Source: Eledone cirrhosa (Eukaryota). From it: 64,000 nt of DNA. Position numbers and translations under genes: made by a program. The DNA lies in contig OZ024751.1 of the NCBI GenBank assembly GCA_964016885.1, positions 48,670,001 through 48,734,000 on the forward strand, written 5' to 3'. The notes under the pieces were generated by a model that was not told the origin of the DNA, ran no database searches, and was given only the letters and a program-made list of their open reading frames with translations. Shown piece by piece: positions 6,059-58,400 of this stretch (its first letter is position 1; every line of letters starts with the position of its first letter).

Positions 6059-6167
6059 CGCGTGTGTGTGTTTGTGTATATATATATATATATATATATA
6101 TACACCTCCATATACATATCCACCTAATTATATATATATATTTATATATATATATATATATATATAT

Positions 6168-6349
6168 AGGAAAATGTATGACCCCGACGTACAGAGCTCA
6201 AGCCGTTTCGACGGCTAATTCTGAGTACAGAAATAGCTTGAGCTCTGCCGTCGGGGTCATACTTCTTCCTATTTCCCACTCTATACCCTAAGTATTGAGT
6301 ACTCTGGTGCGTTATGGTCCATCTGGTTCCTTACCACAATTCCTTTGTT
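6168..6349 (+). mobile_element. Short palindromic element with half-hammerhead and tail (family C)
   Basis: Inverted arms ~6168-6203 and 6236-6270. GAAAC-GG..CC-GTC stem III can be reconstructed from the two arms. Tail contains TATTGAGTAC. Lies in (TA)n. Confidence 0.55.
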
Positions 6350-8649: not shown

Positions 8650-9800
8650 AAAGATCCTAAGCCCGCGAATGACTCCGCAATTCTGCCACGCTCCTGCACA
8701 TCATTTTGCAGATGTGACACTCAGGAGGCTCCCGCATAGTCCTGAAGGTAACCTGCGCCTTATCCGCTCTCATGTGCTGATTGAGTCCAGCATCATTCGT
8801 ACAATCCTTGCTGCAAAACCAGACACGAATTTCCTGCATGCCTTTCACGGTGGGCACCAACGTAATCTTACCTTTCACGGAGGGCACCAACGTAATCATA
8901 CCTTTCACGGAGGGCACCAACGTAATCATACCATTCACGGAGGGCACCAACGTAATCATACCATTCACGGAGGGCACCAACGTAATCATACCATTCACGG
9001 AGGGCACCAACGTAATCATACCTTTCACGGAGGGCACCAACGTAATCATACCTTTCACGGAGGGCACCAACGTAATCATACCATTCACGGAGGGCACCAA
9101 CGTAATCATACCATTCACGGAGGGCACCAACGTAATCATACCATTCACGGAGGGCACCAACGTAATCATACCTTTCACGGAGGACACCAACGTAATCATA
9201 CCATTCATGGAGGGCACCAACGTAATCATACCATTCACGGAGGGCACCAACGTAATCATACCATTCACGGAGGGCACCAACGTAATCATACCATTCACGG
9301 AGGGCACCAACGTAATCATACCTTTCACGGAGGGCACCAACGTAATCATACCATTCACGGAGGGCACCAACGTAATCATACCATTCACGGAGGGCACCAA
9401 CGTAATCATACCTTTCACGGAGGGCACCAACGTAATCATACCATTCACGGAGGGCACCAACGTAATCTTACCTTTCACGGAGGGCACCAACGTAATCATA
9501 CCTTTCACGGAGGACACCAACGTAATCTTACCTTTCACGGAGGGCACCAACGTAATCATACCTTTCACGGAGGACACCAACGTAATCTTACCTTTCACGG
9601 AGGGCACCAACGTAATCTTACCTTTCACGGAGGGCACCAACGTAATCATACCTTTCACGGAGGACAATAACATAATCGACCCCAGACTGCTGATTGCTGT
9701 GAGGTCTTAAATGACTAGCAAGCCCAGTAGGAGAAAGAACCAATGTAATCTTTCCGCAGATATTACAGATATGCTGCCACCAGATTAAAACCTGACACAA
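8650..9800 (-). pseudogene. C2H2 zinc-finger-encoding remnant (probably LINE C-terminus) split by a minisatellite
   Basis: CNICGK..GLASHLRPH on one side of the array; WFCSKDCTNDAGLNQHMR and CHICKMMCRSVAELRSHSR on the other. Confidence 0.5.
8841..9676. repeat. 30-bp minisatellite, 27 full units plus one degenerate
   Basis: Unit CC(T/A)TTCACGGAGG(G/A)CACCAACGTAATC(A/T)TA, head-to-tail with no spacers. Confidence 0.97.
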
Positions 9801-14999: not shown

Positions 15000-15669
<670 letters not shown>

Positions 15670-15736
15670 TTAGTGGTTAGAGCATTGGTCTTGCAATCAA
15701 AAGGTTGTGAGTTCAATTTTAAGACCCGGTAATGTT

Positions 15737-17066
15737 TAAGACCCGCTTCATTGTAGTTAGCTAGAGCAGGATATAGTGATAAGATTATGTACATAGATAA
15801 TGATAGACAAACTAAACAAAATAACAACTATTTTAATTACGGCCACAACCTTAACAACTATAATAGAAAGCATTACAATAATTCCAAAAGCCAAAAAAGA
15901 AATAGAACTAGGAACATAATATGGTTTGCCCCCCCCTTCTCACTAAACATTAAAACCCACATCGCTAAACTATTTTTTAAAGCTCTTGATAATCGCTTCC
16001 CTAGAACACATAGGTATCACTCAATTTTCAATAGACATACTATAAAATTAACCTACTCATCCACCAAAAATTTAGCACAAAATATTAATAGAATAAATAA
16101 TAGGAACTTAAAACCTAGCGATAATAGCATAAATAATATACAAGTTAACAAATGTAACTGTAGAGATAGATCTAAATGTCCGTTAAATAACAACTGCTTA
16201 GTTAAAAATATAATATACAACTGTAATGTTAAAACGGACTCTAATTCTTTTAACTACGTCGGTTCCACATCGACGGAATTTAAACTTCGCTATAATAACC
16301 ACAAGAATTCTTTCACAGATCCAAGCAAAAAATCTTCAACTGCACTATCAGGCGTACTCTGGCAACTTAGGCAAGATAACGTTAGATATTCGACGGCTTG
16401 GAATATAGTCTCAAGAGGGATTCCTTTTAATTCATCCTCTGAGACATGTGACCTCTGCGCGGAGGAGATATTCTTTATACTAAAATCTAAAAATTCCCTT
16501 AATCTACGGACAAATTTATTCAGTTGCTGCAAACATAGATTGAACTCAACTTTTAAATATAAATTTAAATTTAAAATGTAGTATATTTAGTTTGATTTGT
16601 AATTATTTGGGAAACTAGCCGATAAATCTTTCGATTTCTTCTTTTTATTCTTCTTTTTATTTTTATTTTAAACATTCTTCATGAAAAATTAAACTACCCT
16701 AAAAGTTGATGCTCCAAATATATCGAATAAACGTTACACTAGATAAACTTCTATATTAAATATAAGAACATATGTAGACCAAATGGGCATCCTAAACTTT
16801 TGAAATGATTTCTGCTAGACGCGATTTGGTAAATAATTTTTAGCTTTATCTGTTTTCGACTCTGATGCTTATAATGAACTTGGCAATATATTGTCAATTA
16901 ATTTTGAAGGGTTGATCTTTGTGGTCGATTTGCGTGGCATACTATGTTTTTATTTTTATTTTTATTTTTATTTTTATTATTTTAATATTTTTTAATATTT
17001 TTAATATTTTTAATATTTTTATTTTTAATATGTAATATTTTTTATTTTTTAGTTTTCTATTTTATT

Positions 17067-17470: not shown

Positions 17471-17521
17471 AATGGAGGCATATGGCTTAGTGGTTAGAGC
17501 ATTGGTCTTGCAATCAAAAGG

Positions 17522-17572
<51 letters not shown>

Positions 17573-19692: not shown

Positions 19693-19844
19693 TATACATA
19701 TACATATATATATAAATCAGTTGAAACTTCAGAGTAACAAGACCCAATATTTAGCCTTGATAAAATAAGTATAACTCTACTTAGGTATTGAGTACTCATT
19801 TCTCTCGTCCGTCAACTACATATTGATACCCCCCCCCCACAGAA

Positions 19845-19903
<59 letters not shown>

Positions 19904-19918
19904 CGTGTGCTTATATAT

Positions 19919-20117
19919 ATATTTAATATAGTATTGGCTTCTACAGGATTAGAACTGTTTCACTCGGGAGAAATCATTAAGGGCTTCCTGGTGATTTCTC
20001 CCGAATTAAACAGTTCTAGTCCTGTAGAAGCCATTTCTATATTAAATATTTATACTCTGATATGTATTGAGTACCTTACTTACTGTGGTTACCCCCCGAT
20101 TGAATACGGGATAAACT
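19919..20117 (+). mobile_element. Palindromic dual-hammerhead element, family A, diverged copy
   Basis: Palindrome ~19919-20049 with the same tail as 1663-1730. HHR cores are decayed. Confidence 0.75.
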
Positions 20118-27373: not shown

Positions 27374-28378
27374 AGTGAAAGTGAGAGAAGCGGCGCGATA
27401 TGTGTATATATATTCGCAATATTTTTTCCACAGTTCCTGTTTTCTATCTAATGTACATGTTTCATAGAGTAAGACGTAAAATAAAATATATCTAACAGTA
27501 AAAATACATGGCAGCATACAGAAATACAGCATACAGTAACGTGAAAAACTAGAAAACTAAAGAAAATCTTATAATAAATTAATTAAATCTAAACTATCAA
27601 TACGAAAATGTTATTTAAAAATCTAGAAACTGCATCTTAAAAAGCAATGACAATGGCATCAGTGATGACCACAAGAACAAAATGTTCGATATTGAAGAGA
27701 AATATATTGACGAGCATCAAGAATGAAGCAGGAAGCTAACAAACGCAGCAAATGTCAATGAAATTCAGCTTGAGAGAGACACACAACTAGACAGTAATAG
27801 ACTGCAGAGAAGTCGTGAGCACAAAAGAAGAAGGAAGCACCACACTGAAGATGAACTTCCCAACCTCGCTACCATAAGAAGGAACAAAAACCCTAGAAAT
27901 CATCTCCCCCAGAATGACATTTACAACTTTCCCCCTTCAAGGAGACACCATACCAAATCACTCAACTACTACGCGGATGCCTCATCGTCAAACATAGGGA
28001 AAAGATACCACCACCATGATAAATGTAACAACTTCCCCGCTTCAAGGGGACAGCAAGGTAATTTCCATTTTCTCAACTCTCGCTTCCACAATAAACAACA
28101 AACCCACACCATACGATACAACCAACAACGCAGGCCACCTATAACACCACAATCCAACATGGCACATAGAAACACACATCTATACTCGCAATACAGGAAC
28201 ACCCCATTCAATCTACAACCACGAACCCGAACCACATTTTACAACAACAAGGAATATAACAAACACAGGAGACCACTTAACATCAGCAGATAACCCCTCT
28301 ACCCCAACCATTTTTTAGACACAGCACACAGATACAGGCAAACAAAATAACACAAGACAGAGAGGAGAAACCGAGAGT

Positions 28379-30620
28379 AATAAAAATTATCAATCTAACT
28401 AGTGCAGAACCAACACCCAACCTTAACAACTTACTCTCCAAAGGTCTTACATTCACACCGACCCCACTACGTCCTAACTACTATGAAATGAAGGAAGACA
28501 TAACAGACTTCTGTAGAAAGTTACGACTCAGTGAACAACTATTCGACCAGTAGAATGAGGATAAATCATTAGCCAGAAATAGAAGCAATTACACCCCATC
28601 AAAAGGTAGAAGTAAAATCCTGAACGAATTCTGTGAACACATCACAAACTTCCCTTATCAACACTTGCACAGACAAAAACACAAGCCAACCTCATCAAGA
28701 AAGAATGGGAAGAATTAAATAGATTAAAAATCGACAGAACCATTACAATTAAAGAGGGTGATAAAGGGAGTACAGTAGTCCTAATAGAGGCAGAATTCTA
28801 TATCAACTTAGCGTTCTCCACTTTGGAAAACGAAATATACTACGAAAAGGCTGAACACTACAATCAACAGAAAATTATGAGAAACCTAAAAACGATGATC
28901 AACCAATACAAAGAAGGACTCACTAACAAGGAATTCAGCTTCATCACAGACTTCACAAGTAAATCCAGCCTTTTCTACGGTATCCCTAAAGTACATAAAA
29001 GCGAATTAATAAGTAAGGCATGCAAGGAAGCCACAGGCATAGTCATCAATGTCCCCTCACCCAATGACCTCAAATTAAGACCTATAATAGCAGGCCCCGC
29101 TTGCGAAACCCAGCGCCTTAGCAACTTCATTAATACCCTTCTCAAGCCTTTTCTCAAACACATCAAAAGCTATATGAGGGACGACCTAGATATGCTCAAT
29201 CACCTCCCTAATATGCCCCTTTCTGAACAAACCCTACTAGTAACGTTCGATGTAGTCAACCTATACTCCAACATCCCCCACAACCTAGGAATAGAAGCTA
29301 TCCAATTCTGGCTGGATAATTACCACAATGAACTCCCACAACGCATCAAAAAAGAATTCGTGATAGAGGGACTCAAATTTATCTTGGAGAACAATTACTT
29401 CGTTTTCAATAACAAACCCTACAGGCAGAAATCTGGGACCGCTATGGGAACGAAAACAGCCCCCACTTATGCCAATCTAGTCATGGGATACCTGGAAATC
29501 ACCCTCTACACTAAAGTACTAAACAAATTTGGAAACACTCTCCACTTACACATAGAAAGGAACTGGAAGCGATATCTAGATGACTGCTTCATCCTTTGGC
29601 ACGAAAACATCGAGGAACTTAAAGAATTTCACACCTTTATAAATGGGCTCAACACGAATATTAATACAGCCATCAACAAATCCCCTTCCTCGACATCCTC
29701 ATTAAGATCAATAACCAAAAAATAGATACAGACATATACTACAAGCCCACAGACTCAAAGCAATATCTTCCTTTCAACTCTTGCCACCCTAGACACGTTA
29801 AAATTAATATTCCCTACAACTTAGCCAAGAGAATCTGTACTATAGTCTCCAATAAAAACACCTGCTACTTACTACTACAATAACTAAAGGACACACTCAT
29901 AGGCTGGGACTACCCTGCATCACTAATTGACAATGGAATCCAACGTGCCCTAAAATTCAGTACCCAGGACCTTAGACACCCTAAAGTAAATCAACCGAAA
30001 CTAAAAGCTCTTCCATACATCTCCACACACAACCCCCTCAACAATGAGGCCTTTGACACCATCCCCCAGAACATCCCTGTGTTGAAAAAGGACCATAGAA
30101 TGAACCAAATCCTACGAACACACGATATCATAAAGAGCAAAAGACAATCTAAGTCAATGAAAAACATCCTAACACATGCCAATGTACTGCCAACCACAAC
30201 AACGAAACCTACAGTAAAGAAATGCGATAGACCCAACTGTGGCATATGCATCAACCTAATAGAGGGTTCGGAATTCTATTTCAAAGAAGGACAACGTTTT
30301 ATAGTAAAACACAATTTCACATGCGCATCAGAAAATCTAATATATGTATTAACTTGCTCAGGTTGTCGAGAACAATACATAGGCCAGACCCAATACAGCC
30401 TCCGCCAACGCATGACTGTCCATATTAAAATAGGTCCAAATTAAAATACGGGAATACAGGAAAATACCACTGAGTGAACACATTGATACCTGTGCCGCCC
30501 AAAACCATCCCAACTTCAGAATCTTTCCCCTTTACAAATTTAATGATAATGCCACCCACACCCAGCGCATCAGCAAGGAATCTCACTTTATTAACAAATA
30601 CGGACCCCGTCTAAACACTT
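28379..30620 (+). pseudogene. Disrupted Neptune-type PLE ORF (RT plus Cys linker plus GIY-YIG)
   Basis: IINL..LLSKGLTFTPTP, FYGIPKVHK, LRPII, FDVVNLYSNIP, GTAMG, RYLDD, KCDRPNCGIC, NLIY..YIGQT. Several stops and frameshifts. The element probably extends ~27400-31060. Confidence 0.9.
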
Positions 30621-31306
30621 CTCCCTAAGACGAACCCACAGCATACACACGTCAACATACATACCTACATCAGCATACATCTCTATCCACATATAAACAC
30701 AATGACACACGTAAACACACATGTTCCATGGTGCAACACAAATATACACAAATATGCATACCTTTTGATGTATATAGATATAAACGTGCCGACACACACA
30801 TACATATACGCACACATGCATTGCACACTGATGGGCACATACATATTTGTACACAAGTATTCCAATACGGCAAGTCCTAATGGATTCCCCTTGCAGTACG
30901 TGCAATCTGGACACTCACACACACCTTGGTATTATGCCAATACTATATATCATTTCACACCTTTTATTATTAAGGTTTTTGATGTTCTATTGAGAGAATC
31001 GTTTTTACTGAAAATATCGAATAATTTACACCATTTTTACCAGTATCACAGAAATACTGGTCCACCAACACACACACACACACACACATACACATATATA
31101 CACACACACATATATACACACACACATACACACGCGTACATTAACATACAAAGAGACATATACACACACACACACACACACACTTCTCCGTATAAGACAA
31201 GAGCTGAAAAATATCTTTTAACATGTTAAAATATCCCCCACACACGTACAGACACATTCCTACTGACCATCCCTCTACCACGAATTACTCTGCTACACAC
31301 ACACAC

Positions 31307-51255: not shown

Positions 51256-51341
51256 AGTTTTAATATAGATAAGATTCTACAGGACTAGAACTGTTACATT
51301 CTTTAGAAATCATCAGGAATCTGATGATTTCTAAAGATAAC

Positions 51342-53198: not shown

Positions 53199-53359
<161 letters not shown>

Positions 53360-53455
53360 TTGAGGTTGGTAATGGCACATGGAATATATAAGAGGCAGAA
53401 TACTTTTTTGTGAAAAAACATAATTTTATAAGGTAAGGAAATAATAAAGGGTATA

Positions 53456-53505
53456 AAAAATGACCGGTTTCGATGGGTCTGCAAAAGCCATCTTTTCAAA
53501 TGTTG
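53456..53505 (-). ncRNA. Hammerhead ribozyme (U3-A8) in the inverted pLTR
   Basis: Reverse complement of 57668-57715. Confidence 0.65.
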
Positions 53506-53952
53506 ATTAATATTAAGAAAAATTAATAATACGAAGAGTTAAAATTTGAGACTTGAAAATTCAAGTATAAAATTCATTGTGGGATTTCATAGCAGTTTTC
53601 ATCTAGGTAGCAACAACAGGTTGACTGCTGTGTCCCTTTCTGGTAGTGAATGAGAAGTTATTTGGGGTGTGGGTTATTTTATAAAGGTCAGATTTAGCAA
53701 TCGCCAGCTGCTGGTCAGTGAGGGGGTGGAAGCAATATACACACACATATCTTCCTGTGATGGGTAGGAGAGTGGAGCGTGATAGAAAAGGATTTAGTGC
53801 ACTTACACCTATATATACACACATACCTTCATCCACACATACATACATATACATATACATATATATATATATATATACATATACACACATACATACACAC
53901 ACACATACATATACATACACACATACACACACACACACATATATATACACAT

Positions 53953-54007
<55 letters not shown>

Positions 54008-54038
54008 TATATATGCATACACATACATCCAGATACAC

Positions 54039-54132
<94 letters not shown>

Positions 54133-54206
54133 CCCCACACATACATACACACACACATATATATATACATATACATACACACATACAAACATACACACAC
54201 ACACAC

Positions 54207-56411
54207 ATTTTAAGTAAGGGCCTGAAATTTACACCTACACCACGTAAACCAAACTTCCCCGAAATGAAGGATGACATCATGGAATACTGCCGAAAGCTGC
54301 GACTAACGGAATTCTTCCACAACGACACCAACACTGAAGACGAATCACTGGTTAGAAATAAAAGCAATTTCTGCCCACAAAAGGGAAGAAATAAAGCACT
54401 GGACACGTACTGCGAACACATCACCAACTTTCCCTATGAAAAAATTACAAATAAACACACGAAATCAAACCTATCTACACACGAATGGGAAGAATTATTC
54501 ACACTTAGAAACAACCCTGAGATAACTATCAAAGAAGCCGATAAAGGCAGTACTGTTGTGATTATGAATACGGACTACTATAGGACCCTCGCACTTAACA
54601 TTTTAGAAAACAACACATACTATGAAAAAACAGAAAACTACAAACACACCAAAACAATGGGGCACCTTTTGACCTTACTGAATAAATACCGCAACAGCTT
54701 AACCACAAAAGAGTTTAACTATATAAGCCACTTCAAATGCAATACAAGCTCTTTTTACGGCTTACCGAAACTTCACAAATGTAAACCCATAAACGATGCA
54801 TGTGACACCTCAACCAACAATTACATTGAACTAACACCACCAGAAGACCTAAAACTCAGGCCAATTATAGCAGGCCCTACATGTGAAACCCACAGACTTA
54901 GCAACTTTCTGGACATCCTACTGAAACCCTTTCTACAACATATACAGAGCTACATACGAGATGACCTTGACATGCTGAAACACCTCCCTAAAACAGTAAG
55001 TGCAAATACAATTCTTGTCTCCTTTGACGTAATAAACCTCTACACAAACATACCTCACAACTATGGAATAACAGCAGTCCAATACTGGCTTAACACACAC
55101 CCATCAGAAATACCGACACGCATCAACACAGATTTTATCACTGACGGACTCCGCTTTATCCTACAAAATAACTACTTCACATTCAATGGTTCAACATACA
55201 GACAAGTATCAGGTACGGCAATGGGCACGAAAGTAGCACCCACATATGCCAACCTAGTCATGGGATTCCATGAACAACAAATATACAGTCAGTCCCTTCT
55301 CTTATTTGGAGACTCTTTCCACACACACCTCAAAGCCAATTGGAAAAGATATCTAGACGACTGCTTTATCCTATGGCAAGAAGACATGAACTCACTTACT
55401 ACGTTTAAAAACATGATAAACAACATAGATAATAACATACAATTCACAATGGAATCCAATCCTAAGGAATTAGCCTTCTTGGATATTCTCATCTCTGTAA
55501 TAGACGGGAAATTAGATACAGATATATTCTATAAACCCACAGATTCCAAGCAATACCTCTTTTTCACATCAAGTCACCCAAAACATACAAAACTTAACAT
55601 TCCTTACAATTTGGCCAAACGTATATGTACCATAGTATCAGATCCACCTAAACGGGAGCAAAGACTAAAGGAACTAAAAGACACCCTTATCTTAAGAGCC
55701 TTTCCACTTGAAATAATCAACAATGGAATAGACAGGGCAAAACACCTAAATCCCCATCAACTTAACAATCCAAAACAGAAAACCACACTCAACACCCTGC
55801 CATATGTATCCACTTTCAACCCCAGAAATACCGAAATGTTTGATCACCTACACAAAAACCTCCCCATCCTACTTAAAGATGTAAAAATGAAGTCTATTCT
55901 TGAAACACACAAGATCCTTAAAAGTAAAAGACAACCCAAATCACTTAAACGCATTCTCACTGGACCAAATATACCCAAACCAATCCTCAACCCTACAGTT
56001 ACCAAATGTGGTAGAACAAACTGTGGAACGTGCCTCTACCTCACTGAAGGACAAACATTTACATTCAAAGATGGCCAAACATTTACAGTAAAAAACAATT
56101 TCACCTGCAACTCGGAGAACTTGATTTACGCAATAACTTGCGGTGGGTGCAAACACAACTACATAGGACAGACGGGCACCTCATTACGCAAAAGAATGAC
56201 CATCCACCGCCAACAAATCCGGGACGCTAACACAAGAAAAATCCCCTTGAGCAGCCATATTGCGAACTGCGCAGGAATGACACTACCCAACTTTAAAATC
56301 TTCCCCTTCTACAAGTGCTCAGATTCGTTCACACAACAACAAAGAATAAACAAAGAAAATCTATTCCTTAACAAATTTAAACCAAAACTAAACGGGTTAT
56401 CACCCCAATAG
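54207..56411 (+). CDS. PLE reverse transcriptase plus GIY-YIG endonuclease (5'-truncated, otherwise uninterrupted)
   Basis: LSKGLKFTPTP, ADKG, FYGLPKLHK, FDVINLYTNIP, GTAMG, YLDD, FLD, KCGRTNCGTC, NLIY..YIGQTG..RMTIH. Confidence 0.93.
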   Translation: MLSKGLKFTPTPRKPNFPEMKDDIMEYCRKLRLTEFFHNDTNTEDESLVRNKSNFCPQKGRNKALDTYCEHITNFPYEKITNKHTKSNLSTHEWEELFTLRNNPEITIKEADKGSTVVIMNTDYYRTLALNILENNTYYEKTENYKHTKTMGHLLTLLNKYRNSLTTKEFNYISHFKCNTSSFYGLPKLHKCKPINDACDTSTNNYIELTPPEDLKLRPIIAGPTCETHRLSNFLDILLKPFLQHIQSYIRDDLDMLKHLPKTVSANTILVSFDVINLYTNIPHNYGITAVQYWLNTHPSEIPTRINTDFITDGLRFILQNNYFTFNGSTYRQVSGTAMGTKVAPTYANLVMGFHEQQIYSQSLLLFGDSFHTHLKANWKRYLDDCFILWQEDMNSLTTFKNMINNIDNNIQFTMESNPKELAFLDILISVIDGKLDTDIFYKPTDSKQYLFFTSSHPKHTKLNIPYNLAKRICTIVSDPPKREQRLKELKDTLILRAFPLEIINNGIDRAKHLNPHQLNNPKQKTTLNTLPYVSTFNPRNTEMFDHLHKNLPILLKDVKMKSILETHKILKSKRQPKSLKRILTGPNIPKPILNPTVTKCGRTNCGTCLYLTEGQTFTFKDGQTFTVKNNFTCNSENLIYAITCGGCKHNYIGQTGTSLRKRMTIHRQQIRDANTRKIPLSSHIANCAGMTLPNFKIFPFYKCSDSFTQQQRINKENLFLNKFKPKLNGLSPQ

Positions 56412-57018
56412 AATTGTCATAAAATATAAACACACATACGCACGGAATCACTACTATTAAAGACCAGAGACCAATTCTGTAGAATCAGGTTTATTCATTG
56501 ACAGACCATGCCTTTGTGTGACCAACACATCCATGTTAAACCCTGCACGTGCACACACATATATCTATATATATATGCGCACACAGAATTCACCACTGTC
56601 GGTTGCGGGGCCCAATCTACATGAAGATCAGAATGACTTGTATTTTAATTTCACTGCCCCAACTTCTTATATTATGGAAAAAATATATGTGTCTGTATGT
56701 ATATATATATATATATATATTTGAAGGCCATTTCTCTGTGTGTGGGTGTATGTATGTGTGTGTGTGTGTGTGTGAGTATGTGTGTGCATGTGGATGTATG
56801 TATTGTGCGTGCGTGTGTGTGTGTGTGTGTGTGTATGTATGTGGGTATCTGGATGTATGCGTATGTGTATATATATATATATATATATGCGTGTGTGTGT
56901 GTGTGTGTGTATATATGTGTGTGTATGTGTGTATATATATGTGTGTGTGTGTGTGTGTATGTTTGTATGTGTGTATGTATATGTATATATATATGTGTGT
57001 GTGTATGTATGTGTGGGG

Positions 57019-57132
<114 letters not shown>

Positions 57133-57163
57133 GTGTATCTGGATGTATGTGTATGTATATATA

Positions 57164-57216
<53 letters not shown>

Positions 57217-57667
57217 ATGTGTATATATATGTGTGTGTGTGTGTATGTGTGTATGTATATGTATGTGTGTGTGTATGTATGTGTGTATATGTATATATAT
57301 ATATATATATATGTATATGTATATGTATGTATGTGTGGATGAAGGTATGTGTGTATATATAGGTGTAAGTGCACTAAATCCTTTTCTATCACGCTCCACT
57401 CTCCTACCCATCACAGGAAGATATGTGTGTGTATATTGCTTCCACTCCCTCACTGACCAGCAGCTGGCGATTGCTAAATCTGACCTTTATAAAATAACCC
57501 ACACCCCAAATAACTTCTCATTCACTACCAGAAAGGGACACAGCAGTCAACCTGTTGTTGCTACCTAGATGAAAACTGCTATGAAATCCCACAATGAATT
57601 TTATACTTGAATTTTCAAGTCTCAAATATTTAACTCTTCGTATTATTAATTTTTCTTAATATTAATC

Positions 57668-57715
57668 AACATTTGAAAAGATGGCTTTTGCAGACCCATC
57701 GAAACCGGTCATTTT
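57668..57715 (+). ncRNA. Minimal hammerhead ribozyme (U3-A8) in the pLTR
   Basis: AACAT-TTGAAAA-GATGG.CTTTTGCAGAC.CCATC-GAAAC-CG-GTC-ATTTT, with palindromic ACCGGT stem III. Confidence 0.65.
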
Positions 57716-57947
57716 TTATACCCTTTATTATTTCCTTACCTTATAAAATTATGTTTTTTCACAAAAAAGTATTCTGTCTCTTATATATTCCATGTGCCAT
57801 TACCAACCTCAATTTTCTCTATAACCTCGTTTTGTGTAGAAAATTACACTTTTCATATATATATATATATATACACATATATATATATATATATATATGT
57901 ATATACGATATTAAACAAATAGAAACTATATTTATAAAACCATATTT

Positions 57948-58010
57948 TTTTCATTATACGTATTTCAGGGATACCATATTAAAAATATGGCATGCCTTCG
58001 TCAGATAAAA
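57948..58010 (-). ncRNA. Type I hammerhead ribozyme
   Basis: TTTTAT-CTGACGA-AGGCATGCCATAT.TTTTA.ATATGGTATCCCT-GAAAT-ACGT-ATA-ATGAAA. Confidence 0.7.
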
Positions 58011-58141
58011 TACAATATATAACCAGCTTTATAAATAATTTTGACGTACCATAAATATAGCGACCATTAAGGTAGGAAGCTGGCTTGGTCGCTATATTTA
58101 TCGTACGTCAAAATTATTTATAAAACTGGTTATATATTGTA

Positions 58142-58203
58142 TTTTATCTGAGGAAGGCATGCCATATTTTTAATATGGTATCCCTGAAATATGTATAATG
58201 AAA
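58142..58203 (+). ncRNA. Type I hammerhead ribozyme
   Basis: TTTTAT-CTGAGGA(58148-58154)-long stem II-GAAAT(58186-58190)-ATGT-ATA-ATGAAA. Confidence 0.65.
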
Positions 58204-58336
58204 TAAATATGATTTTATTAATATAGTTTCCATTTGTTTAATATCGTATATCTATTCCAAAAACTTGTCGAGTGCTTTATATAAGTTATAAAATATTTAC
58301 TTGTTGTAGCCCAACAATTTTAAATAAAACTTTTGC

Positions 58337-58372
<36 letters not shown>

Positions 58373-58400
58373 ATATATTGTAGGTCTGAAAGTAAATAAT

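Follow-up and report, generated by a model that had tools for sequence, protein, structure and literature searches.

The closest described counterparts of the palindrome analysed here are the insertions of EN+ PLEs. In the accounts of insertion structure given in PMC3846280 and PMC8557442, such insertions carry an inverted, 5′-truncated copy placed head to head, a tail at one end and a hammerhead within the repeat, and show a bias towards (TA)n targets in which the target duplication becomes unreadable; the recurrent inverted layout is a published by-product of PLE insertion (PMC3846280, PMC8557442, PMC4209133). All of these properties are shared by the palindrome, which differs in lacking any ORF, in having no parent element in the material searched and in the length of its tail, the 85 nt of which, compared with the 30 to 40 nt reported for PLE tails (PMC8557442), count against a PLE origin. 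For the anole PLE, nicking and extension of both target strands in vitro, a preference for AT-rich sequence and two internal RNA starts which bound the tail are described in PMC11167929.

Pairs of minimal hammerheads on opposite strands, located 100 to 700 bp apart near truncated PLEs, were reported in 2014, scattered motifs being ascribed to truncated PLEs in the same account (PMC4209133). The palindrome likewise harbors two type I motifs (144 bp apart) with a long stem II, a tiny palindromic stem III and a dimer-type design, but differs from the pairs described there in its 2-bp stem III, 4-nt loop and A-U or G.U pair at the base of stem II. Non-LTR retrozymes, as portrayed in PMC7229834 and 10.64898/2026.07.22.740005, are similarly short, AT-rich, non-coding, equipped with a type I hammerhead and likely PLE-derived; they form head-to-tail tandems yielding circles, whereas the palindrome has a head-to-head arrangement and bears a tail, and the 15 joints listed include no full tandem joint. 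Finally, Chlamys PLE derivatives such as MRC1 (PMC8557442) resemble the palindrome in being protein-less, pLTR-forming and reliant on a PLE in trans, but are algal, often head to tail and associated with a known partner sharing the same 3′ end, which was not found for the palindrome.

In the 64-kb window (the whole stretch of DNA analysed), the palindrome represents a copy of an abundant hammerhead-bearing repeat family and is, with high likelihood, a protein-less PLE insertion composed of two 5′-truncated cDNAs lying head to head in (TA)n. This reading is favored because the inverted 5′-truncated pLTR, the one-end tail and the (TA)n target match those of PLE insertions. The palindrome exists as described, belongs to a multi-copy family and is accounted for by the known structure of PLE insertions; it constitutes one more example of a layout already known in animals and in print since 2013-2014. 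Such stubs can be misread as MITEs, as microRNA hairpins or as dual ribozymes by design.

Anatomy of the palindrome and neighboring elements

The features of the locus and of related elements are collected in Table 1. The arrangement set out in the preliminary description was confirmed: two arms of 166 nt are separated by a 19-nt spacer, the tail measures 85 nt, and each arm contains a hammerhead motif, here classed as type I. The arms are complementary at 158 of 166 positions, and at three of the eight mismatches (58102, 58212 and 58219) 94 to 100% of the covering depth in runs X1 and X9 (mapped as detailed below) carries the left-arm letter; these are, therefore, considered private changes of the right arm. 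The palindrome is flanked on both sides by (TA)n, into which its outer ends merge, leaving the boundaries uncertain by a few bases and the target duplication unreadable. The spacer sequence is single in the window (one match at ≤3 mismatches), which consists of microsatellite-rich animal DNA presumably akin to that of octopus.

Table 1. Positions of the palindrome, its flanks and related elements in the window
Feature	Position	Strand	Description
(TA)n tract	57855..57900	none	target common to the palindrome and the Neptune-type element
Left arm	57901..58066	-	pLTR-like unit in inverted orientation, without tail; (TA)n at its outer end
Spacer	58067..58085	+	19 nt; either 5′-most piece of the direct copy or junction filler
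Right arm	58086..58251	+	direct copy of the pLTR-like unit
Tail	58252..58336	+	85 nt, one side only; opens with a 4-bp stem (58254-57/58270-73)
Right (TA)n flank	58337..58379	none	
Type I hammerhead motif, left arm	57949..58010	-	predicted; core at 58004 (CTGACGA), ACGT loop, cleavage predicted between 57955 and 57954
Type I hammerhead motif, right arm	58142..58203	+	predicted; stem I 58142-47/58198-203, core 58148-54, stem II 58155-85
Right-arm motif, remainder	58186-89; 58190-95; 58197	+	GAAA; stem III and loop; predicted cut after 58197
Neptune-type PLE	53352..57854	+	separate insertion; RT, CX2-5CxxC linker, GIY-YIG-type domain; ORF to 56411
Family-A palindromes	1531-1662, 19914-20054, 51300-51337		centres of 0, 15 and 4 nt, respectively; copy at 51300-51337 without the family tail
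Further short palindrome	6166-6272		one-sided tail
ACTC-N11..15-GAGT tail stems	1669-1689, 6278-6302, 19774-19795, 20054-20074, 58254-58273		otherwise unrelated stubs

The palindrome had also been described as lying next to a Neptune tail, and this tail indeed ends at 57854, with 46 nt of (TA)n ahead of the left arm. The Neptune-type PLE to which it belongs displays an inverted pLTR (left), an ORF, a direct pLTR and a 34-nt tail (right), which is the layout of the palindrome with the body retained. A search with its ORF recovered 940 homologues (E<=1e-20; 7,130 candidates), many carrying the GIY-YIG accession PF01541, and the sequence of its CX2-5CxxC linker would fit an assignment to Neptune or Nematis. 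The latter distinction follows PMC8557442. No blastn match at E<0.05 was obtained between the Neptune-type PLE and the palindrome, in either the pLTR or the tail, and their adjacency reflects a common (TA)n target and not common sequence. Because the non-repetitive arms of the Neptune-type PLE differ at 3 of 460 columns, compared with 8 of 166 in the palindrome, it is likely the younger of the two, having entered the common (TA)n tract as an independent insertion.

Two additional observations concern this neighboring element. Its pLTR (57672-57720), together with the inverted copy near 53450-53500, contains a hammerhead-like motif in which the core is of the U3-A8 type known from PMC4209133, stem I is weak and CCGG forms a palindrome. 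In addition, a frame remains open for approximately 175 codons (53685-54209) through the microsatellite of the inverted pLTR, before the RT region.

Hammerhead motifs of the arms

The cores CTGAGGA (at +58148) and CTGACGA (at -58004) read outward on opposite strands. In each motif, the elements downstream of the core are, in order, stem II (31 nt), GAAAT, a loop reading ACGT in the left arm and ATGT in the right arm, an AUA triplet and stem I (6 bp). A type I descriptor applied to both strands of the 64 kb returned these two matches only, compared with 0.01 per window in 200 block shuffles, and a CUGANGA plus GAAA core with a UH cleavage site is present in both arms. No hammerhead family was among the 12 Rfam matches at E<=10 for the palindrome region, and these 12, like the best 150 of 237 matches in a second Rfam search, were only sub-threshold hairpin or microsatellite matches. 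Stem I is open-ended, includes one G.U among its 6 bp and can be extended to 8 bp in the right arm, while the 31-nt stem II (-12.2 kcal/mol) is longer than usual. The base of stem II is formed by A-U or G.U, as opposed to the G10.1-C11.1 pair usual in hammerheads; a C at 58185, found in 9% (X1) to 21% (X9) of the depth, would give the usual unpaired base and a G-C pair.

Among 40 of the 52 variants detected in reads on the unit, none affected the 11 core positions, while N7 (58152) was variable, with A, C and T representing 17, 17 and 29% of the depth in X1, respectively. This sequence pattern likely counts for hammerhead constraint. The loop variant ATAT (42% in X1 and 29% in X9) remains self-complementary and, within the same 40 of 52 variants, the single variant listed for stem I retains its pair, while four of the eight listed for stem II retain the pair and the other four, taken unphased, break one unless compensated.

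The hammerhead fold of the monomer, at -7.9 kcal/mol, is not the lowest-energy structure, the best fold reaching -13.3 to -13.7 kcal/mol, and stem I has a predicted pairing probability of ~0.001 in the unit RNA. Stem III is predicted to form a self-duplex of -6.5 (left) or -2.2 kcal/mol (right), its short palindromic loop being compatible with a dimer. The energetic cost of the monomer fold, coupled with the self-duplexing of stem III, fits dimer-type or protein-dependent hammerhead motifs: monomers of the former reportedly show weak or no cleavage (PMC4209133), and some PLE hammerheads are reported to require PLE protein (PMC11167929).

RNA read through the whole palindrome is predicted to adopt one hairpin of -235 kcal/mol, in which the pairing probability of stem II falls from 1.0 (in the unit RNA) to 0.0; the hammerhead would be buried within this 166-bp hairpin. 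Because there is one hammerhead per strand, and stem II is predicted to be lost in the read-through hairpin, the two motifs are unable to act as a pair in one transcript. The special dual-ribozyme design read into the locus at first was thus not upheld, each RNA carrying one sense motif, and the label “dual” is misleading for what is one ribozyme motif per strand.

Certain joints in the reads coincide with the predicted cleavage position. In X9, one joint (53 reads, 2 starts) connects the spacer with 58198, which directly follows the predicted cut, and in X1 a contig runs to 58197 and immediately thereafter resumes upstream of the core; these could be traces of cleaved RNA, each perhaps representing a single locus. 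Read pile-ups at 58158 and 58161 were considered as RNA ends and rejected, as they sit on a CATG restriction-type site in a RAD library; their outward to inward ratio of 13,045:1,464 is consistent with palindromic copies, though library bias could produce it as well.

Abundance, junctions and the probable template

The 270-nt unit (58067-58336) was mapped at 80% likeness in four of the 11 listed runs (X1, X4, X5 and X9), which derive from the same or a related organism, the best sharing 0.35 of sampled words and thus representing a relative or lacking the exact locus. Matches to the unit were found in 2,667 of 17.1 million X1 contigs and 33,265 of 12.5 million X9 records, the depth summed over the unit not being a copy number, while X4 and X5 provided 4 and 15 contigs, respectively, mostly short and too few to indicate host range. 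The family is therefore abundant in the mapped organism, and the unique one-off inversion which the preliminary description had named as its counter-case is at odds with these counts. The proposal that the architecture is recurrent is supported by the multi-copy nature of the family and by the repetition of the layout in the neighboring PLE and in family A, to which the palindrome is unrelated in sequence, as had been claimed (no significant blastn match to family A or elsewhere in the window; best E 0.079).

Ten of the 15 listed joints connect opposite strands, every breakpoint pair being different. The junction of the window copy (58067/58086) is represented by 33 X9 reads from 5 starts and a sister junction (58067/58093) by 52 reads plus a single X1 contig (depth 277), while the remaining eight are covered by 3 to 19 reads each (2 to 3 starts) from one reduced-representation library, in which PCR fold-back artefacts are possible. 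Given ten different opposite-strand junctions, the mirror half of the palindrome is likely formed anew at each insertion. That two junction forms both begin at 58067 may be a sign either of whole-junction copying in some cases or of a fixed end at this position. At the other extremity, the arm (58175-58246) has an X1 depth of 1.2-2.2 million and the tail one of 0.15-0.46 million; in X9, 5,974 reads extend beyond the arm end (58255) into (TA)n, and loose ends into (TA)n are present in X1, X4 and X9.

Based on PLE biochemistry (PMC11167929), it is proposed that a PLE protein supplied in trans would nick both strands of an AT-rich target, following which reverse transcription would start at two internal RNA sites, one start giving rise to the tail-less arm and the other to the arm plus tail. 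Joining of the truncated cDNA ends would then create the palindrome centre, self-priming on an antisense template being the other proposed route to such junctions (PMC3846280). The hammerhead is likely inherited pLTR cargo, which could cut only in unit-length RNA, and then weakly, as a dimer or with protein, and which would stay silent in RNA read through the whole palindrome. With its high copy number, short arms and varied junctions, the family is well suited to tests of the way in which PLEs generate their inverted ends.

The nature of the template is the least certain step. A short non-autonomous RNA is tentatively preferred to a full-length element, at a confidence just short of even, because depth decreases sharply towards the 5′ side and a reading frame is lacking: in X1, depth is 561,000 at 58130, 1,400 at 58085 and 277 within the spacer, stops interrupt every one of the six frames of the unit, and the best blastp match of the unit to 120 Neptune-like proteins (E 0.006) covers 33 aa on the minus strand. 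Furthermore, the listed reads crossing 58067 fold back, and no loose end leading upstream from the spacer into other sequence was seen among 21 of 328. These same data weigh against, yet leave a substantial minority chance for, a variant of the mechanism in which a full-length autonomous PLE from outside the window served as template and the palindrome is an extremely 5′-truncated stub. PLE copies are mostly 5′-truncated, and most hammerhead matches lie outside full elements, according to PMC8557442 and PMC4209133; the neighboring Neptune-type PLE has the same layout with its ORF retained, and the 21 of 328 loose ends from which the above judgement was made are a further point in favor of this variant.

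The preliminary description implied that the palindrome itself replicates, as a dual-strand hammerhead element transcribed whole with its centre copied. The reads and the X1 contig across 58067/58086 and 58067/58093 are what such copying would be expected to leave, but the eight further junction forms, the different centres of all three family-A copies in the window and a spacer depth of approximately 1/8,000 of the peak (277 versus 2.19 million) are not, and the predicted loss of stem II in the read-through hairpin also argues against this improbable reading.

It is still less probable that the unit is a non-LTR retrozyme, propagated as head-to-tail hammerhead repeats through a small circular RNA, with the palindrome as an inverted by-product. 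Retrozymes are defined by tandem units (PMC7229834; 10.64898/2026.07.22.740005), while the window copy is head to head, and no joint from tail end to unit start occurs among the 15 listed, short reads limiting the detection of such joints. A type I hammerhead, a unit of ~270 nt and low GC would suit a retrozyme, as would three short go-back joints in X9 and the X1 contig restarting after 58197, and retrozymes have themselves been argued to be non-autonomous PLE derivatives (10.64898/2026.07.22.740005). Lastly, a MITE-like fold-back DNA element with TA as its insertion site, or else a hairpin gene of microRNA type, the hammerhead being incidental in either case, is highly improbable in spite of the long inverted repeats, short spacer, TA flanks and a best Rfam match to a plant microRNA hairpin, since the one-sided tail outside the right arm largely refutes it, the centres vary where a fixed interior would be expected, the core is spared while N7 varies (40 of 52 variants), and the Rfam match (76.9 bits against a gathering score of 211) reflects hairpin shape only.

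Autonomous partner and shared tail stem

A link to an autonomous PLE sharing the pLTR had been suggested at the outset. A PLE-type insertion remains the best reading of the layout, but neither the window nor 44 Neptune-related loci nor prokaryote-centred collections yielded a PLE ORF carrying the pLTR of the palindrome. Motif scans returned 0 loci in metagenome contigs and 0 in genome contigs, queries with PLE proteins returned no relatives in viral contigs, and the 44 Neptune-related loci from genome contigs gave no match to the unit at E<0.1. Three viral-contig matches extended over 20 to 22 nt only and were dismissed as chance, and one loose hammerhead-plus-stem pattern match, at locus L014, was judged not meaningful. 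The Neptune-like ORFs of loci L004-L047 are on contigs assigned to bacterial genomes, a single bin accounting for many of them, and likely represent host DNA carried over into the bins.

The tails of family A (two copies), of the 6.2-kb palindrome and of the present family begin with ACTC-N11..15-GAGT, located 0 to 7 nt past the end of the tail-less arm. The copy within the palindrome reads ATTC; as 98 to 100% of the covering depth at 58255 (X1, X9) has C, this is regarded as a private change of the window copy. A scan of the window for ACTC...GAGT gave four matches against 0.52 expected, a number reached in 1 of 100 shuffles, for a motif picked after seeing the data and with three of the four matches having defined the pattern. 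The fourth (19774) corresponds to a further stub between (TA)n tracts. The chance of the motif per shuffled tail is 0.0003-0.0009, again for a post hoc choice, and the stem is absent from the Neptune-type tail.

It is conceivable, though rather unlikely, that unrelated protein-less mini-PLE families share this stem as a cis signal marking the internal RT start for one PLE enzyme other than that of the neighboring Neptune-type element. If so, thousands of short palindromes would constitute a genome-wide record of two-site, two-strand priming, and the model of PLE integration would become testable from sequence alone; a stem found genome-wide would point to the RT-start signal and the partner enzyme. 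No description of the palindrome family or of the ACTC...GAGT tail stem was found in a literature search which had subscription papers and repeat databases mostly outside its reach, and the common tail stem is one small lead that may be new.

Several minor observations were made elsewhere in the window. The spacers at 58067-58072 and, in family A, at 19977-19982 both start with TTAAGG immediately after CA, the families being unrelated, while those of the 6.2-kb and 51.3-kb palindromes do not start with TTAAGG. A second, broken Neptune-like ORF (27727-30650) has no sequence in common with the palindrome, and neither does a 274-aa fragment (15757-16581) which presumably resembles the GIY-YIG end of a PLE and gave no Pfam match. 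A 69-nt perfect inverted repeat surrounds a 300-nt (TA)n tract at 15298-15735, with a third partial copy at 17484-17523, and a 30-nt tandem array at 8651-9710 is open in several frames on both strands.
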